Shown piece by piece: positions 1 through 60,810 of a stretch of DNA of 64,000 bases (the stretch's first letter is position 1; each line of letters begins with the position of its first letter). The notes beneath the pieces were generated by a model. That model was given only the letters and a program-made list of their open reading frames with translations. It made no database searches and was not told the DNA's origin. Source of the DNA: Hormiphora californensis (Eukaryota; Animalia; Ctenophora); contig CM035358.1 of assembly GCA_020137815.1 (NCBI GenBank), positions 3,596,001 to 3,660,000 of the forward strand, given 5' to 3'. The position numbers were made by a program, and so were the translations under genes.

Positions 1-33901
<33,901 letters not shown>

Positions 33902-37046: not shown

Positions 37047-40000
37047 TTACCGGCGTGATCTCCCAGATTTTATCTTAATTTCAATCTGTTTAGAGTCTTT
37101 ATTAATAAGCTTTGGATTATAAGAACTGTTCTTCTTCCCTGCTTTCTCTGCTCCCGCGGATTCACCCTCCTTCTGGGCCTCATCGCGCTGTTTTAAAAAC
37201 TGGACAATCTTATTCAACTCAGATTTGTCAATTTTCACTTTCTTCTTCCGGTCATCTTCATCATCACTTGAACTACTGTCCGAGGAATGCTTTCGTTTCT
37301 TCTTCTTTTTCTGCTTCTTCTTCTCTTTCTTCTTCTTCTTTTTCTTATCTTCTTTGCCCTTCTTCTTCTTAGCTTCACCAGCGGCAGGTGCATCAGGTTT
37401 CACAGCAGCCTCTTCTACTTTAGGCTCCTCCTGTGGGGGGAGTTTCATGGTTAAACTGTGAATTGTGATATTACACTGTATCATATACTGTATTAAATAT
37501 ACTGTATCATATACTGTATCATATACTGTATCATACAGGGTGTTCATTTTGGATCTTTACAAGCGTTGGGCTTCACCAAAAAAAATGTTGACAAGATTAG
37601 GTGATGAAACTTCATACTTGGACTATTCTATACCCTCATTCAAGATTCCTGGGGGTTTCGGAGCTCTAGCACCCTGGGAAGTGTGTTTTAGGCATCAAAA
37701 CTACCAGAAGGAATTTTTTGCTGGTGCTGAAACTTCGCTAAAATGTTTTTTGGGTATTTTCTATGTCAATCCTAAAGTTTCATGGAGATTGGATGTGTTT
37801 TTCGGACTCAAAATTTCGTAGAAAATGGCTAGAATGACTCAATTTTTGCTGTTTTTGAGCCGTTTTCGAGCCTTTCCAGCCACTTTTTTCGACATTTTGA
37901 GTCCGAAAAACACATCCAATCTCCATGAAACTTTAGGATTGACATAGAAAATACCCAAAAAACATTTTAGCAAAGTCTCAGCACCAGCAAAAAATTCCTT
38001 CTGGTAGTTTTGATGCCTAAAACACACTTCCCAGGGTGCTAGAGCTCCGAAACCCCCAGGAACCTTGAATGAGGGTATAGAATAGTCTAAGTATGAAGTT
38101 TCATGACCTAATCTTGTCAACTTTTTTCTGGGTGAAGCCCAACGCTTGTAAAGATCCAAAATGAACACCGTGTACACTGTATCATACACTGTATCATACA
38201 GTAACGTAGTACAGTCGTACGACCTACTCTTGTAAAAGGCGATCCAATAGAGGTAAATAAGATGTGATCTGATTGACACTTACCCCGATCACAGAGAGAC
38301 TATCCTCCTCTCGCATGATGGTAACAACATCCTCATCTCCCCTTGCTTCCTCTTCAGTCAACATTTTAGCTGTTGCAACCTGGAAGAGAGATGTAATTTT
38401 GAATTTGTTTAGGAACTTAGATTTGATTTGATTTGAAAAGATATTATATAAACGTACAAATTGCACATTAAATAAATACCCGACTGACTCTTACTAATAG
38501 TTTAGCAGCCTAAGGCGCGAGTGCTTACGTCTTAAAAAACTCATTTAAAAATATTTAAAAAAAGTAGCTATAAGGCTAAAACACACTCTTATACTAGTTG
38601 TAAGCTAAATTTATTTCACTCATTAATAATAACAATTATACTTAATACTTACCCTTGATTCCCAATCCCCTACCTCCCTCCCCCATGAACCATACCCCGA
38701 ATTTAACGTCATGTCGACTGTTGGGTAGATGTTAAGATCAGTTATAATTCACATCTGTGGTGCGGGCCCACCATCTTGTTTCAAACTGTTCAACACCACT
38801 CCAAACCTTCAATTTGAGTACAATGTAAGCTATGTTCGGAAGAAGGACAGTTACTGTAAAGATAAAAGAAGAGAAAGGGGCCCACACCACAGCAGCGAAT
38901 TAAGTTATGCCGTGTAAGGCTTTCCAGAGATGGTCTTTCAGTCTAGAGGAAAATAAATGGTGTTCAGCTGTATTTCTCAGTTCTTTAGGAAGTAAGTTCC
39001 ACTCAAGGTGGCAGCGATAAAAGTAACAGTTTTTGAACAGGTCTACTCTGGGTTGTTCGGTACATATAATGTCCGTACTGTCTCGTTTTGTTTGTTGTCT
39101 GGTGGCACGTCTGTCATGTAATTCCGGATTGTATTTTTGTAGGAAAGATGGGAGTTTTATAGGAGACGTCTCATAGAATATTTTATGGAACAATTTAAGA
39201 TCATTATATTGAAATTTTTGAGTCATTGGGAGTACGTCAATCTCCCTGAGTTTCTTTATATACGTATCTAAACTATAACTGGTATCTGTTTCACCGAATA
39301 TCCATTTTGTGGCACGTTTCTGGAGTCGTTCAAACTTAAGCAGACTTGACTCACTTTGTGGACGCCATATTTGGCTACAGTGTTCGAACAAAGATCTAAC
39401 TAGACTAATGTAGAGATTCTTCTTTTTAAGGGGACATTTAACTAATACGCCTACACGCTTCACCAGTCCTAATCTTTGAGAAGCTTTGGAAACAACATTT
39501 TTCTGGTGTTCGATTGGCGACAACTTGTGATTAGTTGAGACTCCTAGATCAACTTCATTTTCACATAATTTGATTTCATCTCTGCCTAGGTGATAATTTA
39601 ATTGACGTTGTTTAATAATTTTAGTACACCTAAGCAGCTTACACTTTTTAGGATGGAATATCATTTTATTATCCTTTGCCCATTCCACTAAACTATCGAT
39701 GTCGGGCTGCAAACTATCTTCTTCACTATTTATAACCCGCCAAATTTTCAGATCATCTGCATATAGCCTAATTTTAGTTAGATCATCTTCTCTTAAAACA
39801 TTAACAATATCATTTATGAATAACACAAACAAGAAAGGGCCTAGTATTGATCCTTGTGGAACTCCACTCCTAACCTCTACCCATTCTGAAAAATCCCCAT
39901 CTAACACAACCCTCTGTTGCCTACCAGATAAATAATTCATTAGGAAACGCAACATCTTACCTCCTAAATTAAACTCATTTTTCAGCTTATTTATTATTAC

Positions 40001-43000
40001 ATCATGAGATACACTATCAAATGCTTTCTGAAAGTCAAAGTAAACTATATCAGTTTGATTTCGGTTATTTATGTTCAACGCTAATTCACAATTAAACTCA
40101 ATCAGTTGTGACGTACATGATTTCAAGGGTACAAAACCATGCTGGTAGGGAGTTATTTTTTCTAGACAGGCTTTATACAGGCGTTCTCTTACTAATTTCT
40201 CAAAAACTTTCATAACAAGGCAAGTCAGGGATATAGGCCTATAATTCTCAACGCATGATCGTTCCCCTTTCTTGTAAACTGGGACAACGTTTGCAGTTTT
40301 CCATTCTGTTGGTATACATCCCTCTGAGTATGATTTATTAAATATAAGGGTGAGTGGATAAGCTAGGGATTTATGACATTTCTTAAGTACAACACCGTCA
40401 ATATTATCTGGACCTGTTGCTTTTGACGCATCCAACTTTTTTAGAATCTTTAGAATCTCATCAAATCTAAATATCTCAGAGTTAAAATCATTAGTGTGAT
40501 CTCTATCAATATCAATATCAACAGTTTCTTTGTAGGTGCTAGATTCAGTGAATTGATTACAGAAAAATTCATTGAACATTTCACATTTACGACGACTCGA
40601 AGAGCTAAATTTATTATTAAAGTATACTCTCTCAGGAATTCTAGTGCTATTCGTTTTGGACTTTACGTGTTTGAAAAATTTCTTTGATACATTAGCATTT
40701 GGTGTAAGTTCATCTATAGAGGAAAGCTCGAGAAAGGATGTTTCTTTCTCTATTGCTAGTGTTCTGTATTGATGTTCTTTGAGTTCGTATTCCTCTTTAG
40801 CAACAATACTATCTATATTTTTCAAGAAGGCTTTTCTAGAGTTATCGAACGATTTCTTAAGTTGGCGTAGTTCTTCATCATACCAAGGTGGCTGTGATCC
40901 AATTTTTACATTGACTAATGGTACATTATGACGTAGTGCAATGTCTAACCTAGACTTAAAGACTTGTAGGGACTGCTCTGCTGACAGATCCTTGAACTGT
41001 CCTAACCAATCAATTCCTAAAAGCTCTTCATTTAGAGAGTCCCAATCAGCTTTTCTATAGGAGAATTTCTTACAATTTTTATACTTAGGGCGTGATTTTT
41101 TGAAATTTATCTCACATTTTAGTGTAAGATGGTCCGACTTTACAAGACTATTCTCTTCGAGCAAAACATTAGAATAAGTAGTTTCTATGTTAGTAAGTAT
41201 TAAGTCGAGAATGTTTCCATCCCTATGCGTTGGTACATTAACTAGAGATTTTAGGCCTAGAGATAAAAATAAATTGATAAAACTCTCATGAGTACTATTA
41301 TTTGACACTGGGACGTCCCAGTTATCAACCGAACTTAGGTTTAGATCCCCTATAATAGTGAGATTCTTAAACTTCTTGGCAAGATTAGTATAGTAACGTT
41401 CCGCCTCTTTGAAGTGTTCCGATCCAGAATAATCATATCTATAAAATGTCGAGATACAAATAGGTGCTATATTTCTATGCTTTAGAAGAATAGTAACTAT
41501 TGGTAAATCGGTCTTCGTTTTAACTAACTCTGTCTCAACTCCAATATTGTTTTTACATAGTATTAAAACTCCTCCACCTCCTTTTTTACTAAAAGTTTTC
41601 ATATCCTTCTCAGTGCGGTCTTTTCTAAATATAGAGTAATATTTATCTGATATAAGTTCCCCTTCACTAATATATTTATTCAGCCAAGTTTCATTTAAAA
41701 CAACGATATCGGGCGAGTAGGTGAATAAGTATGCTTTTAGATCCCTAAGTTTAGAGGCCTGAAATTCAGGCTGATCCCCACCTATTGTGTGCATCTTTAT
41801 CAGACCGTTAACATTACAATACACTAAGTTCAACTTTTTATCAGGCCCTGGATTAATGATGTCAGGATGGCTTCTCAGTAGTAGCATTTTCGCTAACGAC
41901 GTAGATGAGGTTATTTGAGTTTGACCTTCAATCACCGCCATGTCTGAATGGTACCCTGTCCCCCATAAAAACAAGAGATATAATTAGGGGCCGCCCAGAC
42001 CCACCAAGAGGGAGTATGGTACGCTAAAGTAGACGCGACCCCGGTAAACAACCGCCGAGCCCGGATTTACTTCTTGTATGACGTCATCATCCTTTGTGAC
42101 GTCATCATGACGTGTGACGTCATTATTGGTTGTTGATTCAGTTGGTTGGAGGGGTGCTGCTGTTTCTACTTCCTCCTTTTCAGCCTTTTCTGATATCTGA
42201 AAGGGTGAAATAATCATTGTATTTGACTGGCCTGGCAATTAAACTTGTGAAGTGCGAATTGAACATTTGAATTGGTGTTGTGTTGAGTAAGGGGTGAAAC
42301 AACTATTTTAAATATCTAGCAATAGAGTCAAATTCAAATTTCAAACCAACCTCTTTCACTGGCCCTGATCCCTCCTCTCCGTTCTCTGGCTGTGGTTGTT
42401 CCTGTCGCAATGGTGAGACCCTTCCAATCGGTCGGAATTCCTTCTTCTTCTTCTCAGGAGGCTCATCATAGATTTCCATCTCCTTATCAGACGGGGTACT
42501 CTTATTCAACTCGGCCTTCTTCTGCTCAAACTCCCGCTTTGATTTCAGGCAGAAGTTCTTAACTTGGCACTCTGGTTTGGATGAGTCAGTGGGGTCTTGT
42601 GCTGGAGGTGGCGGAGAGGGTGTCACTTCTTTCTTTTTCGCTCGGAGAAGTTCCTCCTCTTCGCTAGAATTTATCGTCTCAGATATGATCTTCTTCCGTT
42701 TTTCCCGTTTTGCTCTCTCCAATTCCCGGATGTTGTTCTTGATTGTGGAGTCCCGTTTTGATGCCTCGCTCTCCTCGGGTGGTATGTCGTCTGAAGATTT
42801 TCTCTTATCTGGATCTGATCTCCCCGATCTTTTATCAGGTTCATCATGCCGCCTATCTGAGTTGTTCCTTCGTCCCGTATCTTTTCGCCTCTCAACTTCC
42901 CCTCGACGACGCTCGTAACTCTCTTTCCGTCTCTCGTAGCTCTCACGCCTCCTCTCTGAGTCATATTCATCCCTTCTGCGTTGAGTATCATCCCGCTTTC

Positions 43001-45720
43001 TATCCGAATCATCTCTTCTTCTTTCGACCTTCACCCCAAATTCCTCTCTCTTTCGGTCCCGTTCATCTCTCTTTTTATTGATTTTATCACTCCTTTCCCT
43101 TGGCTGGTGATGATTATCTTTCTTAATCTTCTCCTTAATTTCATCAATTTCATCCCTTTCATCTCTCTTTTCCTCTTTCCGTGGAGGATGTTCCTCTTTT
43201 CGACTTTTCTTCTCAGGTTCCTCCTCCAGGGAATGCTCAACTTTCTCAACTTCCACTTTACCCTCTTTCTTCTTCTTTTTCTTCTTCTTCAGTTTCTTCT
43301 GTGCAACTGGGGTTGGAGATGCCGAGGAGATGCGACTGACAACAGGGGAGACTGGTTGTACGACTTCTGAACGGACTAATCCTTTAACTGCGGGTGGGGG
43401 CTGAGGGGATTCATCTCTCACTTCTCTACTTGTTGTCCTGAAAATATAATTACTAATTAGTATCATTAAAATAGTAAGTGTAGTTAAACTACAGAATAAC
43501 CACAACCACAAACAATCAATGTTTCAGGACCTCTCCAGACGAGACAAAAGTGCAGCTGCCCTTAGAATTATTTACAAAACCTTCCGTTACCTGGTTAATC
43601 GAGGGGGTGGCGGGGAGATGTCTGGTTTGTCCCGTCTGGAGCGCTTCTCAGGCCTCCTTGTCTCACGGTGCTGCTCCGTGGAAAGGTGTCGAGGTCTTTC
43701 TGAATCTCGTGTCACCATCATATCCTTACTCACCTAAGATAGGAGGCAGGATTGTTAGAGGGCGGGGGAGGAAGGATTGTTAGAGAGCGGGGGAGGAAGG
43801 ATTGTTAGAGGGGGCGGGGGAGGAAGGATTGTTAGAGGGTGGGGGAGTGGTAATGTTTTGACAAACTAAGACCTGGAGGGGTTTCTGATAGAGGCTCCAT
43901 ACTAGCCAGCGTCCTGTCGGGTGCTACATAATACCTTGATGGTAAAGACAGTTCCAAATTCAGGTAAGGGAGGAGTGGGGGCATCATCTCGTGCTGACAT
44001 TTTAGGTGTTCTAGATCCATCATCATCATCATCATCTGTATCTACTGAGTCACCTGGAGGAAGGGAGGTGGAGTTGAAATGTCACGTGGTTGAGGAATTG
44101 AAAAAGGGAGCTATCACGTAGTTTGAAGAACCAGTGGTGGCCACCCCCCAAAACTTTTCAAAAAGGGGTTGTTGTGGGTGGTAAAATAGCTTTAAAATGT
44201 GTTCTAAATTGCTTTAAATTGATCAAAATCTAAAATTTTCCGGGGGCTTCGCCAAGGGCTAAAAATCGTTAAAATATTGTTCTAAAATGCTTAAAATTGA
44301 TCAAAAACTAAAATTTTCCGGGGGCTTCGCCCCTTACCCACATCAGGGGCTGAACATCATTAAAAAAGTTTTCTAAAAGGGCTGAAAATTGCCCCCACTA
44401 AGGGCTGAAAATCGATAAAATATTGTTCTAAATTGCTTTAATTCATCAAAATTTCCGGGGGCTGAAACTCGTTGAAAATTTTTTCTAAAAGGGCTGAAAA
44501 TTGTTTAAAAAAAATTCATCAAAAACTAGCCCCTCAAACCCTCTAGTTAGGAACACTATTGGTGCGCGGTCGTGCCCACGGAAGGAGTGCTTGGATCATC
44601 TTGAAACCGGTTTTAAGTTAACTAATGCATATATCCAAAAGTGTCTGTAGCTATTTGGGTGATGTTCTGACAATCCAATCAAGAGTTATGACGAAAAAAC
44701 AGTCAAAAAAGACGTTTTAAAGTGACAAAAAGGAGGACCTGAACACAGCCCTTATATGAAGGGTTGGGGCTATGAAACTTCTTGAGTGGACAGAGAATTG
44801 TCCAAATTTGCAGTGTCAACTTTGGAATAGTTTCTATCTTCTGTAGTTATCTAATTAGAGCCGTTCAAACATGTGAGACGATCTGCAAAACAGGGTAATT
44901 TGGTACTGTTTCCGTCCCATATTGCTTGCTCTCACCGCTTGTATGCTTTAATCCGCTCTCTAATTGGGCAAATCTCGTCAAGTGATCACTTCACAAGCAA
45001 GAATACACAGTATTAGAGGCCCCTGCAGCATCGTCTCACATGTTTAAACGGCTCTAATTAGATAACTACAAAAGATAGAAACTATTCCAAAGTTGACACT
45101 GCAAATTTGGACAATTCTCTGTCCACTCAAGAAGTTTCATAGCCCCAACCCTTCATATAAGGGCTGTGTTCAGGTCCTCCTTTTTGTCACTTTAAAACGT
45201 CTTTTTTGACTGTTTTTTCGTCATAACTCGTGATTGGATTGTCAGAACATCACCCAAATAGCTACAGACACTTTTGGATATGCATTAGTTAACTTAAAAC
45301 CGGTTTCAAGATGATCCAAGCACTCCTTCCGTGGGCACGACCGCGCACCAATAGTGGTCCTGACTACTCGGTCGCTAGGTCTGGAGTTGAAGTGTGGCCT
45401 TCGGCCACACCACCCCACCAAAAAATCCGTGCTGGGGCCACCCCTGTGAAGAATGCTAAAAAGTAAAAGAGGCTTGTTTACGACATGGGGTGATAATGGC
45501 ACCCTTTCTAAATCAATGTACCTGTTGACATAGGGGCAGGTGTACTTGGTATTATATTCCTTAACTCCTCTAATGACTCCTTTCTCTCCCGTGCAGAACT
45601 GAGGGCAGCCTCCCGGAGTAACGCTAACTCTGCCTCTTGCTGCTTCTCCAGTTTCTTGGACATTGATATTAGGGCAGCCTCCCGCAGTATGGATACCTCC
45701 CGATGCTGTGGGGGAGCCAT
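37047..45720 (-). CDS. Uncharacterised low-complexity Lys/Arg/Glu/Asp-rich protein, probably nuclear; 7 exons
   Basis: Phase-consistent exons 45720-45522, 44053-43935, 43733-43591, 43437-42351, 42196-42071, 38379-38284, 37430-37047. RD/RE and poly-K tracts; two N-terminal LREAALxS motifs. No recognisable folded domain. Confidence 0.75.
37536..38172. mobile_element. Foldback non-autonomous DNA transposon, Tc1/mariner-like (copy 2)
   Basis: TA|CAGGGTGTTCATTTTGG...CCAAAATGAACACCGTG|TA; highly similar to 24931-25567; inserted into an (ACTGTATCATAT)n minisatellite that continues on both sides. Confidence 0.9.
38425..42063 (-). mobile_element. Non-LTR retrotransposon (LINE, CR1/L2 group), intronic
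   Basis: Intact APE-RT ORF, about 470-nt 3' UTR ending in a (TCAAA)n tail near 38420-38436, and AAATC at both junctions. Confidence 0.9.
38900..41941 (-). CDS. LINE ORF2: AP endonuclease + reverse transcriptase (about 1013 aa from first ATG)
   Basis: APE motifs NVNGL, LNETWL, GDLNL, GNILDLIL, SDH; RT motifs KATGPD, NYRPISL, QHGF, DFQKAFDSV, GVPQGSILGP, YADD. The ORF-track start at 41974 is TTG; the first ATG is at 41941. Confidence 0.95.
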   Translation of the reverse strand: MAVIEGQTQITSSTSLAKMLLLRSHPDIINPGPDKKLNLVYCNVNGLIKMHTIGGDQPEFQASKLRDLKAYLFTYSPDIVVLNETWLNKYISEGELISDKYYSIFRKDRTEKDMKTFSKKGGGGVLILCKNNIGVETELVKTKTDLPIVTILLKHRNIAPICISTFYRYDYSGSEHFKEAERYYTNLAKKFKNLTIIGDLNLSSVDNWDVPVSNNSTHESFINLFLSLGLKSLVNVPTHRDGNILDLILTNIETTYSNVLLEENSLVKSDHLTLKCEINFKKSRPKYKNCKKFSYRKADWDSLNEELLGIDWLGQFKDLSAEQSLQVFKSRLDIALRHNVPLVNVKIGSQPPWYDEELRQLKKSFDNSRKAFLKNIDSIVAKEEYELKEHQYRTLAIEKETSFLELSSIDELTPNANVSKKFFKHVKSKTNSTRIPERVYFNNKFSSSSRRKCEMFNEFFCNQFTESSTYKETVDIDIDRDHTNDFNSEIFRFDEILKILKKLDASKATGPDNIDGVVLKKCHKSLAYPLTLIFNKSYSEGCIPTEWKTANVVPVYKKGERSCVENYRPISLTCLVMKVFEKLVRERLYKACLEKITPYQHGFVPLKSCTSQLIEFNCELALNINNRNQTDIVYFDFQKAFDSVSHDVIINKLKNEFNLGGKMLRFLMNYLSGRQQRVVLDGDFSEWVEVRSGVPQGSILGPFLFVLFINDIVNVLREDDLTKIRLYADDLKIWRVINSEEDSLQPDIDSLVEWAKDNKMIFHPKKCKLLRCTKIIKQRQLNYHLGRDEIKLCENEVDLGVSTNHKLSPIEHQKNVVSKASQRLGLVKRVGVLVKCPLKKKNLYISLVRSLFEHCSQIWRPQSESSLLKFERLQKRATKWIFGETDTSYSLDTYIKKLREIDVLPMTQKFQYNDLKLFHKIFYETSPIKLPSFLQKYNPELHDRRATRQQTKRDSTDIICTEQPRVDLFKNCYFYRCHLEWNLLPKELRNTAEHHLFSSRLKDHLWKALHGIT
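44132..45446. mobile_element. hAT-like non-autonomous element (host of a nested insertion)
   Basis: Termini CAGTGGTGGCC...GGCCACCCCTG; 8-bp flanking duplication tgaagaac/tgaagaat; internal ggggcttcgcc / gggctgaaaat repeats. Confidence 0.75.
44544..45366. mobile_element. Foldback non-autonomous element, Academ-like termini
   Basis: Inverted arms of about 335 bp around a spacer of about 150 bp; termini TAGT...ACTA; 3-bp duplication CTC. Superfamily call is inferred from termini only. Confidence 0.8.
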
Positions 45721-46713: not shown

Positions 46714-49080
46714 TTATTCAGCCTTTTTCTTGGCAGGGAAAGTACTGTAGATCATGGAGGCTGATACAACTAGGAACAGTCCACCTCCAAACGTCCTGAA
46801 AGTGGAAGTTAAATTTGGAATTTGGAGTGGGTGATTGACAGGTTTAACCTCAGGTTTAACGTCACAAGTCTGTGGAAATAATATACCCGGTGGGAGAAAG
46901 TTGTCAATGTTTCTTACATGGTAAAAGATAGTTCCCCAAGGTAGAAGATACTGATAAGGGAGGATAGAATGATAGAGATAGATGTTGCAAACACTTTCAC
47001 GATGTTATCTGTGTATTTTACAACTAGACTGATAAGTAGCCCTCCGTAAGCCTGGGAAAATGTGAGGTTGATAAATAATGGTCTTACAGCCGGGCCCCGA
47101 TTTACTGGGATGCTCGGGGGAAGTGTTTTTCCCCTTAAAATAAGGTAAATCGGGGCCCGACTGTATTCGTACGCAGCACAAATCATGGCTATTTTTTAAT
47201 ATAACATTCTCTCAAACCTTCTAGAAACTTCATCGAAGACTAGAGAATAAAAACCGGCTATTTATAGAACTATTCTCTTCCTCTCGTTCTATAGAAGCTC
47301 GTTGTCTAGACTTGTTTATTATATACCTGAGACAGTATAACAGCAGCGATAGTACCATTAAAATCATGGAAGACCCCCTTTTCTGTTATGTGGTCTTGCT
47401 GAGTTAGAGCAATGTTACCCAATCCTACAATACAGCTGCACAACGCTGTAGGAGGGGGTTAATAATCAGGGGAAAGAGGAGAACAGGATTGATATATAAG
47501 GGAGAATTTTGGAACAATAAACTCTATGAAACCCTCCTCTGAAATCTCTCCCCTAGCTTAAGTAACAATCTCTCTTCTAGTTAAAGTATCAATCTCTCCC
47601 CTAGTTAAGGCCAGAGGGGGGGGGGTCGACGGGTTTTTTGGGGTGTTTTTTGAGGTATACGTTATATGAAAGCGCTGGGCAAGGCGGATCGATTAGAACT
47701 GATGCCGTCGATGTTGCGCGCACCGTTTGGCAAAAATTTGGGGGTTAACATTTGGCCTATAATGGATGTTAACCCCTATAAATCAGGATTGGTGGGGTCT
47801 AGAACATCCATCATTGTACCAAAGGCTTCGTCTTGTCTTGATACAACTTCCTGAAAAGTTTTATGTCGTTACTCCAACTACTTCTTGATTTTTTGGGGGT
47901 TTACAAAATATGCGGAAAAAGCCCTTTTTGCCTCTAATTTTGCTCTTTTTTGGGACATCCTGCCTCACTTCCTGAGATAACGGCTAGGACTCAGACCTTG
48001 CCGTTTGGCATAGTTGTTCTAGAGACCGTGTTCTTCAAATTTGATGTAGCGATTTTTGATTAAGGCCCCCGTTCAAAATTTATAGGGGTTTACATAAAAT
48101 TTTCATGGACAAAACAAATGTTAACCCCTATAATTTTTGAACGAGGGCCTTAATCAAAAATCGCTACATCAAATTTGAAGAACACGGTCTCTAGAACAAC
48201 TATGCCAAACGGCAAGGTCTGAGTCCTAGCCGTTATCTCAGGAAGTGAGGCAGGATGTCCCAAAAAAGAGCAAAATTAGAGGCAAAAAGGGCTTTTTCCG
48301 CATATTTTGTAAACCCCCAAAAAATCAAGAAGTAGTTGGAGTAACGACATAAAACTTTTCAGGAAGTTGTATCAAGACAAGACGAAGCCTTTGGTACAAT
48401 GATGGATGTTCTAGACCCCACCAATCCTGATTTATGGGGGTTAACATCCATTATAGGCCGAATGTTAACCCCAAATTTTTGCCAAACGGTGCGCGCAACA
48501 TCGACGGCATCAGTTCTAATCGATCCGCCTTGCCCAGCGCTTTCATATAACGTATACCTCAAAAAACACCCCAAAAAACCCGTCGACCCCCCCCCCTCTG
48601 GCCTTAAAGTAACAATCTCTCCCCTAGTTAAAGTAACAATCTCTCCCCTAGCTAAAGTAACAATCTCTCCCCTAGTTAAAGTAACAATCTCTCTCCCCTA
48701 GAGTCCCAATCTCACACCTAGTTAAAGTATTAATCTCTCCCCTAGCTAAAGTAACAATCTCTCTTCTAGTTAAAGTATCAATCTCTCCCCTAGTTAAAGT
48801 AACAATCTCTCTCCCCTAGTTAAAGTAACAATCTCTCCCCTAGTTAAAGTAACAATCTCTCCCCTAGTTAAAGTAACAATCTCTCTTCTAGTTAAAGTAA
48901 CAATCTCACACCTACCAAGTTGAACGTTTCTCAGCCACACAGACTTTCCAGATGATTTCAACATGAGTTCGAAGGATACCCCAGCAAATCCAGAGGTAAG
49001 AGAGGCACAGGCAATGGCACCCAGGCCGATCATAGAGGAGGAGGAGGAGGAATCAGCACTTTCTACAGAGTCCTTCCACT

Positions 49081-51144: not shown

Positions 51145-54100
51145 TCACACGGGACCGCCTTCATGGAGAGATTTTAGAGTTTTCTCAAATTGTCCTGCCC
51201 GTTTTAGCTCCAGAAACTTTTCGTAGAGTTGCAGGGAGGCTTGGGCTGCATGTTGGGGTCCGGGGATGAAGTCCGCGGTTAGGAGAGTCGGACAGAGGTA
51301 TTGGAGGGAGTGGGTAGCACCTAGAAGAGATAGAGTGTGGTCAACACATTGAAAGAAATTGTAATGGGTGTCTATAAACTACCAGCACCCTGATTTAAAA
51401 CCCCATTTCCTCAGGGCATCCCGGTAAATTGGGGTCTCACGCGACTGCAGTATCTATTAATTATTCACTGGTTTATGATATATCACAATAAAACATACCA
51501 AGGGGGCTCTTGAAAAGGTCGATGGTATCAATGCACTGTTGACTGGGTAGTTGAATGTTAACGAACTTCAGCTGTTTGGCAATGTTGTGTCCCACCAGGA
51601 TCACTCCCCTATCCACCAGGCACTTGATTTGGAAATAGAGGAGCTTGGTACTCTGGTGTCCCTCCTGGTTGGGGTGTTGACAGGTAAATAATTAATTAAA
51701 TAGGTTAAGAATTAACATCGAACATGAATCATGTCCATGTGAAACGGCAACATGTAAATATTTCACAAAACAAGTTTTTCAGCCAGAAAACAAACTAAAA
51801 ACACACAAACATAGTACATACCGTTCCAAATTGTGTTGGACAGATGCTATGACTGAATGGCACGCCCTCATTGGCACCCTGGCCTCGTACCATAACAACT
51901 CTAAGAAGGAAGGAGGGTCCCTGGTCCATACAGAGGCCAATACCCACCAGCTCTCCCTTCGAGAGGGACTCATTGGCAGTGAGAGGCATCATGTTCATAT
52001 CCATCTGAGGGGGATAGATGTTATCTAGGAGTCGAGCTGATAGTTAGGTTTTAGTTAGGTAAATTGGAGTATGATATTACAGATATATGGACTAAAGAGG
52101 AAGCGTGTACACCCTTTCTCCAGATCCGGGGAGGAAGGTACATCTAAACAAAGGGAAACAAGGAATTTTGCCAAACAAATGTTTCACCCGTAAGGGATCA
52201 TCAGAAAGGAAGGTACATCTAGAGAAAAGCTAAACAGAATGCTGGAATTCTTTCCAAACTTCTCTCTCCCTACCTGTCCACTCTCTTCTCTCCAATCTAA
52301 ATCAGTCAATACAATACAAGCATTCTCTCTAAATAAAGTATCCCTACCTGTCTGACGTTGAAGTTGGTGAACAGTTCCAGGGGGCTGATAGTGGTAGTAG
52401 CTAGGAGGTCCTTGGGTAGTTTCACTTGTTTGTATACCACCACGCAGGCAGTCTTCCAGGACTGACCAAAGTTAGTTGCCTCCTGTAAAACAAGGAGTTA
52501 AAGTAGAGTTAGCACTGGGTTGGTATGGAGGTTCGCTGAGCGTACTCCATGGTTTAGTAACAACAAAAACTGAATTGGAAACGAAATCTGATTCAAACAA
52601 CAAGTATGTCTACCCAGTCCACTAACGCCGATCAAGCAAAAGGTAATTATTAGCTAATTACCCGCTAATTACCCACTAATTACCACCTCATTATCACCTA
52701 ATTACCTTATTATGAGTGCTAGTGGCGCTGCACCCATTAAACAGATACCACTCTGTGTCTTCTGAACCGCCACGTAGTTGGTGGTACTTTCGATCAACAA
52801 GGGAGTGAAGCATTAGCCCCTGGGAAGCTAGAGGGGGAACAGAGAGATGTTAGTATATTTGGGGAAGCTGGGAGAGATTAGAGATGTCAAGATACTGTAC
52901 TTAGATTAGTTAAGAAATATTGAACCTGAGTGAACTACTTAATTTCAAAACTTCATACTTACTCCCGGAGTCTATGTGGGCTATTACAGAACACAGTTCA
53001 TACTCGAATACTCCCATGTAGGGTTGGGATCCCTCCTTTTTGTCGTACAGCCCCCTTCCAAACTTTAGTTCACCCGGCTTTGGGCCAGATGTTATGTGGA
53101 ACTGGGGAAAAGAGAGGTCAAAAATGATATGTGGAACTGGGGATGAAGAGATCAAATTTAGTAACGTTCTAACACTCCTTTACATTTGTAAAAGAGGGCG
53201 CGGTGAGAGAGTCAATCTCAGTTAAGAATCGTTGAAATATAACCGGTTATATTTCAACGATTCTTAACTGAGATTGACTCTCTCATAACCAGAATATACA
53301 ACTGTGGCTGCCCAGGACTGGGCACAACAACAAAATCTTACATTGAGGGGCAGCCAGGCATTACTCTCGTACCCGTGTACTAAAGTACAGTCGGGTATAC
53401 TACACGATGCCCCTGCAGGACACCTCTTACTCAGCTCCGTGTGGACCTTACACTGCTGTTGCCAAAACTCCGTGTTAGTTGGGTGTGAACCTGGAGAAAA
53501 CAGTGAGCTTGGGGTTGACGGTCGTCTCAAGTGAAGCAAGCTGAGAGCCTACACGAGAGATTCATCACAAATCAAGTATATTATGTGTGTAGTAGGTGGC
53601 AAGACTGGAACACGGGCGGTGTTTTCTAAAACTAAATTCAAGAAATGCAACACCCTCCTGCTTTAATCACTGTATGATTACTAACCAATCTGACCCCCAT
53701 TATTACCCCGACCCTCATGATTACCACCCAATTAACCCCCCCAATTACCCCACTATAATTACCACAATTGAGTTGCAGGATATACGGCAGGGATTCCAGG
53801 GTGCCACTCTCTTTGCACGATGTGAATTGTCTGCACCGGTTACACCACTGAGTTGATCCCTTCTCAGGCTGCATGACTTCCTTCAGCAACTGATTGAGAT
53901 AATTATATAGCAGGAACCGACCGACACAAGTAAACAACCAATCAGAACTCGTTATTTAGGTCACGTGACTGGTTATCAGCCAATCAGGGACCAGTATTTC
54001 CTGATTCGGTCGGTTCCTGTTATATGGTATGAATATCTTGGGCATGCATATGAATTGAACTAAAAATAGAATTGATAGAGATTTGCATTTTGCACTGCCA

Positions 54101-57100
54101 CTAGGTGCTGCAGCTTATATCTGAGGTCTTGCAACATTATCACAAATCATAAAGCTAGAGATTCTAAAGAATCATTTTGTGCAAGATACCCCTATCTGTA
54201 AATATAATATCGTATCGTACCTGTACAAAGGGTATTGGATCGGGTGAGGTCCTGTACTCCAGATTGTAAAAGAGGTTAATACTAGATTTGTTAGTTAGCA
54301 CTTGGGTACAACTGGAACACGTCGTTTTGTGGGCTACCTGTGTAATGACTGTTATCAGGAATTTTAATTTTGGAGATTAAAGGTGGGAATTACACCCGAG
54401 CCAGCATGTAAAATCATTGAGTAAATTTAATAAGTATGTTAACTAAGTTAAGTTATTCAAGATGTACCTACCTTGCTCCCAAATGCTGAACACACAGGAC
54501 TGGTATGTTGGGGTGGTTGGATCGCTGCCAGAACCTCATTATGCAGTTGTCGGAGGAGGGTGGTTAGGAAACTTTGGGCCAACTGAAGGTAGTCCCTCTT
54601 TTCCAATCTCTTGTCATGTAGCTTCCAGTTCTGATAGTTCGCCTCGTGTACCTTATCAAACGCCTAAAAAGTATTGATTGGTTTTATGAAGGAGCAGAAG
54701 AATACTCGCTCCTTCATAAAACTAAACATAAACTATTACAGCAACAAAAGAGCTCTCGTTACCTGAATGAAGCTATCCGCCATTGTGACTTTATCATCAG
54801 TAACATCAAGAGTATAAAAGAGCAGGCCAAGGGAGCACGCCATGCACACGGTATTTTGACAGATGTGAGATTTTAATGCCAGGGCTATCGGTTCGATGTA
54901 GTAAAGTAACTGAAGGACAGTGATGTTGAAATCTTGTTGAAATATCAAATCAATTTTCTCTAGAACTTTGCAATAACAATCCAAACATTCAGATTTTAGC
55001 TATGTCCTAGATAGTGATATTGTTTGAAGGACTAGGAACTTTGAAGTACATACCTGTAGTACAGGGCAGATGTAACCATTTCCCTTAGTATTGCAAAGGA
55101 CACTAAACTTAGTTCTATTTATATTGTGAAGCTCATTCTCCGTCAATGTAGTTAGGTCAACATCAACACACTGATACACCTGTAATTAACAACTAATTAA
55201 CAACTAATTAACAAATAATTAACAATTAATTACTCATTATCCAGAGCTATATAGAACAAAGTTTCTAAAGAGCATTATACATAGTAATTGTCCCATCAGT
55301 ATGAAATATGAACTCATCCTGTGTCCCTGTACAAAGGAACTGTTTGCTACTATAAAACAAGGATTAGCTTTGGAACAACAACTCATTCTGAGCCTAGCTG
55401 CAGGAACAGCCCCTATTACTACATACCCGGGGTATTTTACTGAAACCGTTATCCTTCCCCCGGGGATCATCTATTCTGGGTTGCAGTTTCAGTTCGTATG
55501 GTATCGTATTCTTGTACATGTTGTTAGGGTTAGGTGAGTACCCGCCCATGTACTTTACCTAGAGAATAAAACAAAAGTTTATTTATTCAGTTAATTAGCT
55601 AAACACCAATCGATTCGCTAATTTACCATTTTCATGTTCCTCAAGAGGTCAGCATCAATTGGTTTCACTCTCCTTCCGCCGGGTCTGTTAAATTCAGAGG
55701 GCCAGTCGCTTAGCAACGGTTCTGAGGTGTGTGGTACTGGAACTGTAGACAGCGGGAAACTGTAATCGTCAATCTGAGATTTGAACTAGTTTTAAAAATC
55801 TTCATTCTAAAAAAAAGTTTATCTGGGACAATGGATATATTATGATGAATTAGTGCATCATACAGATCCTTTTTTATTTCCACATAAATACCTACATTGA
55901 CTTTAGGGAAGTTGAGGATCTGTTCGGAGGGAAAGTAGGTTGGTTGGGAGTATTGGTTAAAGGATGTCGTCTCGTGGGATGCTAACAGGTGCACCATACC
56001 CGCTGTATCGCCTGGACAGAGAGAATAATGTCACATGTTGTATTGGTGTTACTTCTTACATAGTTGTATCTCTCATTCTACCAAACAGCACAAGGGAATC
56101 ATATCATTTCCAATATCAGTTCATTTTCTAGTACACACCGAAAGGGTAAATTTAGTGCCGTATATTGGGGTCCACAGTTTATTCAGGGGTTAGACTGTAC
56201 AAAATTGTACGTGAGGGAGAACGGGGAGAACACCTAGAAGCCAACTACACACACCACAGTAGAGAAGCTTGGGTATATGACTATAAATGGGCATAAAACT
56301 ACAATTCTCATACAACATCACAATTCACACAATTGAGACATTTACGTAATGGCGACATTACCTATCGCGAGGGCTTTTGATGAAGATGACAAATCGAAGT
56401 CATAACATGAGTAACCCCCTAAATCAACCTCAAAGTATTTAGTACTCTGGGGCGTGGAAGACGCTACCTCCACCTGTTGGAACTGTCCAGGCTGAGAGGC
56501 AATCAGGACCTACATTGGAAGAGGGGGATTAAGATAATTCTGGACGTTCCTCTCAACAAAAAGATTTTAAAATTGGGGAGAGAGTATAATAGCTGTTCAC
56601 CGATACACTTACCTGTTTTATAATGATAACACGCCCCTATTGTGCCCATGCCAGATCACAAGATAGTCGATATCAGGACACCTTTTTCGACTCTACTAAG
56701 AGATCACAAGAGAGAGAGACCTACCTGTGAGTGGTACATGGGCATGAATCGTAACTGGAGTGGATCGATTGAGCAGTGTACTGCAGTTAGACTCCGCATC
56801 ATTCTCAGATCGTACACTAACAATGCACGTGTAACACTCAACTCGTTTCCACGGGAAGCAAAACCACATGACACCTGAGAGGAAGAGATAGAGATTTAGT
56901 GAAACTGAACTTTTAGTTCGGCTGGATATATTGGGTTGAAAACATAATTTTTCGCTCTGAATCACTCTCTTACCAGAAGGTTGTCACAAATATCAAAATC
57001 TGAAATCGTCCCCGAGTGTGCTTGAATTGTGTTAGTCCTCTTGTAACTATTCTTATCATACAACAATATATCCCCATCTGGGCACCCGAGACACACCAAA

Positions 57101-57912
57101 CTTTGTGTTTCTCTGATTAGGACACACTCCGAACTACCCAGATCAATTTCAGTCGTTATGGCCTGTTTTCCGAGATCGTATTTAGTGACAATGTTAGTGT
57201 GGCCTCCAAGGTAGAGCTCCGTCCCCGTGGGATCTTTAGACATACAGCACATTCCGGTGAGGTTAGGCGAGGTAAAGGAGTGCTGGGGGACACCCTGGGG
57301 GAGGAAGATAGGTGAAGGGGTACTGGGGGACACCCTGAGGAGGAGTGGGGTTAAAGGTTTGTAAAACATAACCCTTCCGCAGCCTTCGGGATTCGATTCG
57401 CTATTTGGCAAGGGGCAAGTAAGGAACTACCAAGGTCAAAGGGCAAGTACATTATATATATAGGGTCCTAGCCGATAAATATAACATACCCCTCGAGTGT
57501 GAAGATTAAGCCGGTTTGAGGAGAGAGACAGAATACCAGCATCTATCGGGTGTAGTTCCCTCACTTCGCTATTAGCATAGAACTTGGTATACGGCTGCAA
57601 CCCACAGGAGTAGTAACTCGTTACACTGCCTTTCTGTCCTCCCACCCATATCAACTCCTGATATATGAAGTGTTTTTTAGTACACAATGTTGTTAACTTT
57701 TTTTACAGTGATGATGATTCTTTTAGGGAATCCGCCCTAGCCCCTAAGTCAATGATGATTCAACTAAGACCTTTTGAGTTTTTCAATTTAAAATCGAGGT
57801 AGTTGTGCAAATCTTCTTTATTGACCTGTTTACTGTCGAATGCAACAAAGCTAACACTTCCTTGAGTCTCGACAACCTCGGTGCGGCTGAATTCAAAGAG
57901 GCGATCCGTCAT
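51145..57912 (-). CDS. PAN2: PAN2 poly(A) nuclease subunit orthologue (WD40 - UCH-like - exonuclease-like), nuclease site degenerate
   Basis: Exons read include 57912-57826, 57657-57490, 57294-56974, about 54950-54762, 53490-53342, 53101-52963, 52482-52348, 52004-51822, 51664-51499, 51320-51145; further internal exons at 53.8-56.9 kb not fully resolved. Motifs ELIWVGG..GSVTSYY, AHSGTISDFD, VLQLLYYIEP..HIC...CMACSLGLLF, VRGQGANEGVPF, GVILVGH, SLQLYEKFLEL. Confidence 0.92.
53204..53285. repeat. Perfect 82-bp palindrome
   Basis: TGAGAGAGTCAATCTCAGTTAAGAATCGTTGAAATATAACC followed by its exact reverse complement, no spacer. Confidence 0.95.
53911..54019. mobile_element. 109-bp MITE, hAT-like (copy 2)
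   Basis: Same TIRs as 14081-14189; 8-bp flanks ttatatag/ttatatgg (7/8 match). Confidence 0.85.
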
Positions 57913-58217: not shown

Positions 58218-60521
58218 CTATGTTCGAACTTGGAAATTCCCAGCTTTAGTGATGTATTTAACACCCTTGAAAGGCTTATAATTCTCGTTGAACATATCTA
58301 GCCTGTTTAACTTTGAGACCACTGACTGCCAACTGACTTATCTTGAAATCCACATGTATCGTTGGGTGGGCTGCTTTGCAGGTAGCACCAGTCGCAATTG
58401 TACACTGGGAGGGATATATTAGCTTGAGAATGAGAATCACAACAATCCAGGTACTCGAGAGAAGAAAATAATATATTTTTAGAATAGATAGAAAAAGGCT
58501 GCTTCAAAAAGAAACTTACTGTGCCCCGCATGGTTGGTATTTTCAGTGGCTGGATCTTCCCAATATCCCACTTTAGCTGCTTAGTAGTTGGATCGAAGGT
58601 GTAAGTTCCAACCGATGTAGTCATGGAGCAGCCTGTCACCTCTTTCGGTAGGGGAACTGATATAATCACGTTATCCACCTGTGTGAGGAGTTGTGGTTCC
58701 AGGAAACTGTTGCTATGGTAACCAAGAAAACTGTTACTATGGTAACCAATGAAACTGTTACTATGGTAACCAAGGAAGCTGTTACCATGGTAACCAATTT
58801 GTAGCTACTGTTACGGTATACTAAGAAGAATGATAACGTACCGTTTTCCCCAGAGTTTGTTTTGGTCCCACAGTAATGTCAACCTTACCAATCTGACCAT
58901 CGTTGAAGTTGATCATGGCCCGTACATACACCGGGATAGCAACCTGACTGGCAATATACCGAGAATTAGAAAAGATGCATAACCCATGTATGACCATGTA
59001 TGATAACACTGAATTACAAATACAAAACGGTTTTTACGGTCTATACTAACACTAGATTACGACATTTTAAGAACTATGAATATAATGCCATAAATTAGGG
59101 CATAATAACACCAACTGATTTCACTGTACTCACTTCTGAGAACTAATGTGGTAGCTCATCAGCACAAAGTTGCCATCTGGGGGAATGAAAGAGAGAACTT
59201 TCTCACTCTCCCACCTCTTCAGCCGGACACAAGGGTGAAAAGAGACATCATCAAGGAGTCGGGGGTTGATAAAGGACATGCTGAGGTCGGGCATCCCAGA
59301 TAAATGGACGTTACAGTTTATCTGGAGAGAGGTCGGGGGAGATTAGGAAAAGAGTTGGGGTGAGAAACGGTATTTGATGTACACACAAAATCGTTTCTTT
59401 AGTAGCAGGGGTCCTGCACGAAAAGTTGGGTACAGCAAATTGGAGTAGTTCCAGAAAACTTAGACATTTGCCAAACATACATTTCTGGCCGGAATAGTAT
59501 TCCCAGAATACTACCACACACTGACGTATAATAGGTAAACTCGGAAATTTCACAGTGTTGTGTGTACTCACATTACACATGAATTGGGAAGTTTTACAAC
59601 TTACATTTCCATGAATTTCTGCAGAGACAACATTTCCATTGGCATCAATAATAACATCCACATCTTCTACACAGTCAAAATATGCTTCGTTATTGGCATA
59701 TTTAACACCCTGTCTCCTCCAGGGGACGTTAGACAACTGAGAACCAGGGAGAACTGAACTTACTCTGCAAATGAAAAGGAGAGTTAGGAAATGTAAGTTA
59801 GTTTCCAGGAATTGGATATCCAGATATTGGAAAAGTTACCTACCCTTCTTTTCCGGTTACCATAGACACTGCCTTGTTGAGAATGGTTGGTGGTTTTATG
59901 AGCTCAGTTAAGATGTTCAGTTCTGTAGCCAAGGGAAACCCGTTATCGAGCATTTCTTCCAACAACTGACAATAAATGTGGCGTTAAAAACAAATAATCA
60001 ATTTTCAAGAAGTAGTAAATTAACGCACTGTATTTAAATATTTGAATACCAACCTGATACACAACAATGATATTGTCTTTGATTGCTGTCTCAGTGCAGT
60101 CATCGAAATACTCAGTGAACGTATCCATCACTCGGTGCATGAATTCAATGACAAACAACGGCTGGACTGAAATAGTGGTATATGAGATCTGAGTTACACA
60201 TTTGATAGTAATTGAGACACTTCAGAATCAATTTCCACTGACCTTCCATTTGAGTTACGGCAACTAGATAGATTTTCTCTCTGTAAATATTAATCAAGCA
60301 GTTCTTGTTGGCTGTAATTATAGGAGGGACATCTTCAGGAGTAGTAGCCTTGGTCTGGGCATCAAAAAAGTGGTCACAAACACTCCGACTGACGATCGTC
60401 CGCCAGTGTTTCTCCAGGAAAATGTCCCTGGGGGAGGAATTTGATAGCAAAATCTTCACAGAATACTGATATAATAAACTTACCCTGATTGGTTAATGAA
60501 AAATATGCTGTTTATGAGCAT
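58218..60521 (-). CDS. AP3M1: AP-3 adaptor complex mu subunit; about 9 exons
   Basis: [13 protein letters not shown]|[21 protein letters not shown]; [18 protein letters not shown]; [18 protein letters not shown]; [29 protein letters not shown]; C-terminus [19 protein letters not shown]. Confidence 0.95.
58703..58797. repeat. 24-bp tandem repeat, each unit containing an RFX X-box palindrome
   Basis: GTTGCTATGGTAAC (58709), GTTACTATGGTAAC (58733, 58757), GTTACCATGGTAAC (58781). Confidence 0.85.
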
Positions 60522-60529
60522 TTTGTAAC

Positions 60530-60810
60530 AGAAACAGCCGACAGCGGAGAGGCCAGAGAAGAGTTTCGTTTTTGGGGCAAAAAAAGAAGCAAAAAGTTTT
60601 CACGGACACTGCATAGTGGGGAGCCTAAGTCCAACGTTGTGCGCGCCGCCGTCGGCTTTTCGTCGGCGGTACCGCTAACTGAACTGACACTGGCATCCTC
60701 ACTCGCGCGCTGAGAGCTTTTTTCGCGCGGTACATGTTAGTTCGTTCAGACTGTGAGTGTGACTGAAAATGGATTTTGTCACCTAAAATGGCCGGTCGCC
60801 TTGGAAACTT
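60530..60810 (-). promoter_or_regulatory. Putative CpG-rich promoter of AP-3 mu
   Basis: CpG-dense patch (GCGCGCCGCC, CGCGCGC, TTTCGCGC, AAAATGGCCG) directly upstream of the ATG. Confidence 0.45.

Follow-up and report, generated by a model that had tools for sequence, protein, structure and literature searches.

A natural PAN2 in ctenophores with a nuclease predicted to be inactive, maintained by selection and likely kept as a scaffold

We have analysed a window of 64,000 nucleotides from the genome of the ctenophore Hormiphora californensis. It carries an intact, spliced PAN2 gene whose nuclease is predicted to be inactive and whose product likely survives as a scaffold on PAN3 and PABP-coated poly(A), without cutting. 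PAN2-PAN3 is one of the two conserved cytoplasmic deadenylases that shorten mRNA poly(A) tails and it is generally held to work by means of the nuclease alone. A destroyed active site in a protein of ca. 1000 residues that has been selected across deep splits would imply a second, non-catalytic job. We are confident that ctenophore PAN2 is both dead and maintained; as to its role, we lean slightly towards the PAN3/PABP scaffold. The gene is organized as follows (window coordinates).

57912-51145, minus strand: PAN2 gene, 20 exons, all introns GT-AG, a single open frame of 1015 codons
55896..57912, minus strand: exons 1-6, WD40 propeller (in known structures the site of contacts with PAN3 and PABP), with Pfam PAN2_N on exons 2, 3 and 4
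55427..55773, minus strand: exons 7-8, core of the PAN3-interacting linker, with motifs PLS..P, LLSDW and GYSPN
52348..55179, minus strand: exons 9-17, pseudo-UCH domain, with Pfam UCH_1 on exon 10
53375..53422, minus strand: CCCH zinc finger within the UCH domain, ligands retained
52004-51822, minus strand: exon 18, ExoI with D>G and E>C, post-ExoI loop deleted, terminating at the second deletion
51664-51499, minus strand: exon 19, ExoII with D>Q, best PDB sequence match human PAN2 (9qtu_C)
51320-51145, minus strand: exon 20, ExoIII without His and with D>A, conserved C-terminal helix, stop codon

The single chain has the domain order of PAN2, that is, an N-terminal WD40 domain (PAN2_N), a pseudo-UCH domain (UCH_1, which also matches the Mnemiopsis orthologue) and a C-terminal RNase-H-like domain, with sequence motifs of the PAN3-interacting linker between WD40 and UCH. 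It aligns end to end with Mnemiopsis leidyi KAL5251197.1 at 65% identity (655 of 1004 pairs). The original prediction dealt with the last three exons, from the start of exon 18 at 52004 to the end of the stop codon at 51145, and held that they splice cleanly, stay open and match the PAN2 nuclease. All of this was borne out: the exons have GT-AG ends within the 20-exon frame, and exon 19 matches human PAN2 (E 2.9e-06) with its Q aligned to the catalytic D. Searched singly against Pfam, exons 18, 19 and 20 gave no match, and Pfam RNase_T gives none to the degenerate ctenophore nuclease domain. At the start of exon 3 there is a short tandem duplication (57294-57345, minus strand) with two similar splice acceptors, the downstream of which agrees with the Mnemiopsis protein.

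All five DEDDh positions are substituted in the window protein, as had been claimed. ExoI reads LVGIGLCM, where the first Asp has become G864 (51938-51936) and the Glu C866 (51932-51930); ExoII reads GHNIAKQL, with Q933 (51574-51572) for Asp; and ExoIII reads PGPQHAA, with A982 (51249-51247) for Asp. The ExoIII His position corresponds to P977 if aligned without gaps, or to Q980 if a three-residue deletion relative to the lobate proteins is allowed, and there is no His either way. Nothing is left of what characterizes an active DEDDh enzyme, namely the Asp and Glu of ExoI, the Asp of ExoII and the His-x4-Asp of ExoIII, and since all five catalytic residues are absent the nuclease is predicted to be inactive. 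The deletions reported after ExoI and further on were also recovered. ExoI and ExoII are separated by 59 residues, compared with a median of 99 among 104 other PAN2s, and the ca. 40 residues deleted between them include the loop that carries the base-stacking aromatic, whose column is a gap in 7/7 ctenophore rows. This column is probably the counterpart of Y975 of yeast Pan2, described as a base-stacking residue (PMC7116106). Hidden exons that could supply the acidic motifs were considered and ruled out: every reading frame of introns 17-19 is interrupted by stops, none of five canonical motif patterns was matched in any of the six frames of the window, and the continuous, transcript-sized contigs of the relatives described below are without the same segments. 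The extra-exon objection to the original prediction failed on this last point.

As a control we used 164 other PAN2-like proteins (150 representatives and 14 from a whole-length search), 119 of which span ExoI to ExoIII. All five catalytic residues are retained in 110 of these 119 (118, 117, 113, 115 and 115, position by position). Of the nine without the full set, seven look on inspection like truncated or exon-skipped models and two, P0080 and P0039, are truly degenerate, so that such loss is rare, not unique. P0080 keeps two and P0039 one of the five residues, and both have internal deletions. Although they share a degenerate nuclease with the ctenophore proteins, they retain a canonical zinc finger, and a tree that excludes the nuclease columns does not group them with the ctenophores, placing P0039 instead with the intact P0048. 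It is possible that they are independent losses or dead duplicates.

The same damage is found in other ctenophores. Searches with the exons led to an ENA fragment cluster and to Mnemiopsis KAL5251197.1, which clusters with Bolinopsis microptera XP_063688047.1 and with a JGI protein from a 3.8-kb contig. The whole-length search added a third deep ctenophore lineage from 3.2-kb Logan and JGI contigs, one of which (L001) encodes a PAN2 of 1018 residues in one unbroken frame. A locus search by full-length alignment gave one locus among 441 candidates. Identity to the window protein is 65% in the lobates and 55% in the third lineage, and both deletions, the change of the first Asp to Gly and the loss of the ExoII Asp are common to the window protein and all these relatives. 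At the five positions the window has G/C/Q/-/A. Mnemiopsis has G/S/Q and Bolinopsis G/C/Q, both retaining the ExoIII Asp with a His just two residues ahead of it, a broken spacing, and the third lineage has G/E/S/Q/E, that is, the ExoI Glu is retained and a Glu replaces the ExoIII Asp. The first Asp is Gly in every ctenophore row and the ExoII Asp is Gln or Ser. Only the window lineage has lost all five residues; its relatives keep one or two, which differ by lineage, and no acidic residue at the catalytic sites is common to the three. This pattern suggests that the enzyme was inactivated once, early on, and that the sites still left then drifted freely. The tree without nuclease columns (32 rows chosen from 62 aligned, all PAN2, midpoint root) placed the ctenophore clade (SH-aLRT 100) on a long stem inside an animal group supported at 94. 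Since relatives that have diverged to 55-65% identity are damaged in the same way, artefact, noise and chance are not the explanation; the original prediction had already set sequencing noise aside, and the comparison extends its claim beyond this species.

The dead domain is under purifying selection. Between the window and L001 the second codon positions of the nuclease are 71% identical (161 codons), against 22% of four-fold sites (40 sites, saturated). Its rank among the domains has changed, however. Among 11 canonical animal PAN2s, conservation of the nuclease exceeds that of the WD40 in 55/55 pairs (mean 68 vs 46%), whereas in the three ctenophore pairs it is always less conserved (nuclease/WD40, 64/72, 47/67 and 52/69), which indicates that the ctenophore nuclease has been released from catalysis. 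Of the columns conserved across 54 canonical rows, those kept in all three ctenophore lineages are 19/22 in WD40, the best-kept domain, 8/9 in the PAN3 linker, 28/47 in UCH and 18/68 in the nuclease. The three linker motifs are found in 4/4 ctenophore rows with the Leu/Trp pair kept, and the C-terminal helix is strongly conserved among ctenophores. What is kept is the protein-contact set (WD40, linker and C-terminal helix) and what is lost is the RNA-contact and catalytic set.

The UCH domain requires one correction. Its Cys-box had been read as DFN in place of YCN, a mistake: the true box, in the final part of exon 9 (55074 onward), reads Y-I-C, and the Cys of Y-C-N is Ile or Val in ctenophores. 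The DFN belongs to the in-frame end of intron 9, which is removed in a contig of the presumed RNA run X1 described below (joint 54909-55054). Within the UCH domain, the CCCH pattern matched 32 of 123 full-length rows, and in 32/32 of the non-ctenophore fingers so found the positions R-[YFW] and [FY]-x-H are invariant. None of the ctenophore rows examined has the Arg that follows the first Cys or the F/Y that precedes the His, the window and the lobates lack the aromatic following that Arg as well, and of the conserved positions only the ligands are retained. These Arg and aromatic positions presumably contact RNA. The finger gives a weak Pfam match to the Nab2-type finger, and in the PAN2 literature consulted we found no discussion of a CCCH finger in the UCH domain.

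Structure prediction points to a retained PAN2 fold. The AlphaFold model of Mnemiopsis PAN2 has a mean pLDDT of 81.4 (52-92 in blocks of the nuclease domain), the top Foldseek matches are PAN2 entries, and the UCH-nuclease superposes on Neurospora 4czw (Z 35.1, rmsd 3.7, 540 residues), all on the basis of aligned rows, 61 canonical and 6 from ctenophores, that bias the model to the canonical fold. Predicted alone and without an alignment, the nuclease domain reached a mean pLDDT of 32.9. A comparison in the ESM Atlas put the Mnemiopsis domain close to RNase_T clusters (0.92-0.94), which we take as a lead only.

We favour the scaffold reading because the protein-contact set is kept while the RNA-contact and catalytic set is lost. 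Catalysis would have been lost once, on the ctenophore stem. The dead PAN2 would still hold PAN3 and attach to poly(A) tails coated with PABP, and the emptied nuclease domain may have been retained as it packs on the UCH domain and touches PABP. Trimming would then fall to CCR4-NOT and other deadenylases, and the dead complex would act as a length-sensing adaptor or shield. Several published observations make such a protein conceivable. PABP is contacted by the base of the Pan2 WD40 and by the C-terminal helix, on which its RRM1 packs (PMC6547884, PMC4158885), the linker binds the Pan3 dimer through a hydrophobic/Trp pair (PMC4158885), and the UCH and nuclease domains are structurally a single unit (PMC7116106). 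Catalytically dead Pan2-Pan3 co-elutes with poly(A)-PABP particles of 70A and 90A, and not of 30A (PMC6547884). Besides, RNA adaptors have been described that recruit PAN2-PAN3 (bioRxiv 2025.09.27.678968), which fits an adaptor role. Against this reading, a dead mutant of yeast resembles the deletion both for tail length (PMC6547884) and for mitotic stress (bioRxiv 2024.05.01.591760), so that in yeast no non-catalytic role on tails is established; we have also counted against it that the UCH domain is eroded like the nuclease (28/47 columns). Of the original proposal of a non-catalytic PAN2 kept as a scaffold, the part concerning maintenance by selection is well supported by the sequence comparisons, and the part concerning the scaffold is better read as a suggestion.

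With canonical PAN2 (USP52; PDB 9qtu, 6r5k, 4czw), which gives the best sequence and structure matches to the window and Mnemiopsis proteins, the ctenophore protein shares the domain order; unlike it, the DEDDh set is destroyed, ca. 40 residues are deleted, RNase_T does not match and the basic and aromatic finger residues are lost. The closest functional parallel is in engineered enzymes. Inactive mutants in use include D1020A and E912A of yeast and D1087A of human, and single substitutions at the ExoI Glu or the ExoII Asp are the standard way to kill the enzyme (PMC6547884, PMC4158885). Like them, ctenophore PAN2 is predicted to be without catalysis at the same positions, but it is natural, fixed across deep lineages and under purifying selection, and its substrate-binding loop is gone as well. 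The PXL module of PML is described as keeping the DEDD fold without the acidic set, and it is a separate family and not, as here, a PAN2 orthologue. Maelstrom, which we take to be a DEDD-fold pseudo-nuclease, presumably also belongs to a family separate from PAN2.

There are other possible explanations. The loss of both the stacking loop and the basic and aromatic finger residues may mean that the protein has left RNA biology altogether, with WD40 and UCH binding and stabilizing protein partners away from poly(A) and the nuclease shell kept as a rigid unit with UCH. We consider this the best of the alternatives, although unlikely. It accounts well for the decay of both RNA-facing features (deleted aromatic loop, lost finger positions), a WD40 that is the best-kept domain suits partner binding, and human USP52/PAN2 is reported to bind ASF1A through its WD40 without PAN3 (PMC5876348); the single structural unit of UCH and nuclease (PMC7116106) would explain the shell. 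However, a role independent of poly(A) does not predict a PAN3-binding linker that keeps 8/9 columns and the Leu/Trp pair, nor a strongly conserved C-terminal helix. The deubiquitinase activity claimed for the domain is disputed, with a report that it lacks protease activity (PMC10590902), and the Ile or Val of ctenophores at the Y-C-N Cys argues against a UCH function of this kind.

Less probable still is that we are looking at a diverged duplicate and that ordinary deadenylation is carried out by another PAN2 that is still active, or by an active nuclease domain encoded separately. This matters, as the rewired deadenylation proposed for this lineage would require the degenerate copy to be the only PAN2. 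A whole-length search with the Mnemiopsis query, both proteomes included, found no second PAN2 in Mnemiopsis or Bolinopsis among its 18 matches (2 ctenophore-clade clusters and 16 canonical PAN2s, 4 of them Logan proteins), with a word-based method that is insensitive at the distance of canonical PAN2: just these 16 were returned, and a copy older than the ctenophore stem could be missed. The second-copy search covered proteins of 554 aa or more, and the grouping of the degenerate P0039 with the intact P0048 could represent just such a dead/active pair. On the other hand, every copy recovered from a ctenophore falls in a single clade. The additional Bolinopsis entry matches the first perfectly over 639 aa and is a partial version of it, and of the 164 other PAN2s none is above 40% identity to the window protein except one exon fragment, itself from a ctenophore.

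That the nuclease still works through a rearranged active site is very improbable. Lobates do retain the ExoIII Asp with a His close by, the ExoI Glu persists in the third lineage together with a Glu at the ExoIII Asp, and the fold is predicted to be intact, but these remnants differ by lineage, the window has none of them, no acidic residue is common to the three, and single substitutions inactivate the yeast and human enzymes.

Transcript evidence comes from two runs, X1 and X2, that consist of contigs and are presumed to be RNA. X1 is close to the window (42 of 61 placed records at ≥95% identity), and X2 comes from a less closely related organism (13 of its 16 records below 90%). Joints in X1 show that at least 5 of the 19 PAN2 introns are spliced (3, 4, 9, 10 and 12); none of the three nuclease-domain introns is among the X1 joints listed, and X1 depth over exons 18-20 is ca. 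1, including a contig across part of exon 18 (51821-51951) that differs from the window by 5 letters. Among the at least 21 exon differences listed between X2 and the window, 16 of the 18 changed PAN2 codons are synonymous, as are 5/5 of those listed in exon 20. Splicing in presumed RNA, together with purifying selection, speaks against an unexpressed or neutrally evolving locus, another objection that the original prediction had left standing. That the gene is decaying, or an artefact of assembly or gene model, is hardly credible: a single-base assembly error lies nearby (at 58312) and X1 support is thin over exons 18-20, where the nuclease introns are missing from the listed joints, but 1015 codons are open across 20 exons, independent assemblies and transcript-sized contigs carry the same damage, and the protein is conserved while silent sites are saturated, with most of the listed X2 codon changes synonymous.

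The error in question is in the neighbouring AP-3 mu-like (AP3M1-like) gene (58218-60700, minus strand, Pfam Adap_comp_sub), which ends ca. 300 bases before the start of PAN2. An extra base at 58312 frameshifts its last exon; the base is absent in X1 and is likely an assembly error, so that the assembly does carry single-base errors. None of them breaks the PAN2 frame. Within PAN2, intron 14 contains a perfect palindrome of 82 bases (53204-53285) and intron 12 a short inverted repeat (53905-54025), both likely repeated elements, since many loose-ended X1 contigs are found at both.

We return to PAN2 as a scaffold to consider how far the result may reach. PAN2-PAN3 would here combine three dead domains, a pseudo-protease, a pseudo-nuclease and a pseudokinase. 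Tentatively, and with less confidence than for the scaffold itself, one can imagine that Ctenophora as a whole phylum is without PAN2 deadenylase activity, and that the complex reads tail length via PABP and shields long tails or passes them on to CCR4-NOT. If so, ctenophores would be a natural knock-in exposing a non-catalytic function of PAN2-PAN3 that is hidden in other animals. Non-cutting roles of the complex, and the way in which tail length is determined when the initial trimming is missing, are testable in Mnemiopsis, a laboratory animal. The RefSeq name of the Bolinopsis protein, "catalytic subunit PAN2-like", is likely misleading for ctenophores. These animals have also been reported to be without Drosha and Pasha (PMC3840309, PMC4793324); their control of mRNA may differ more widely, although any link between PAN2 and Drosha/Pasha is speculation.

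A literature search, mostly outside the subscription journals, found no account of ctenophore PAN2 or of a naturally inactive PAN2 and no mention of a ctenophore PAN3, and one supplement file from each of three ctenophore papers (PMC11184263, PMC11797021, PMC6278862) had no PAN2 or PAN3 entry. A natural inactive PAN2 appears to be new, even though the sequences were already public.

The rest of the window contains other features. A LINE-like element (38903-43523, minus strand) looks intact, with a frame of 1027 codons containing endonuclease and reverse transcriptase, preceded by one of 406 codons with no Pfam match. At ca. 26700-32300 (plus strand) EGF repeats, a Cys-rich repeat and ankyrin repeats follow in the same orientation, which suggests a Notch-like gene. 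Finally, two foldback elements (44544-45366 and 47605-48607) have long nested arms that are 98-100% complementary and are probably non-autonomous DNA transposons.
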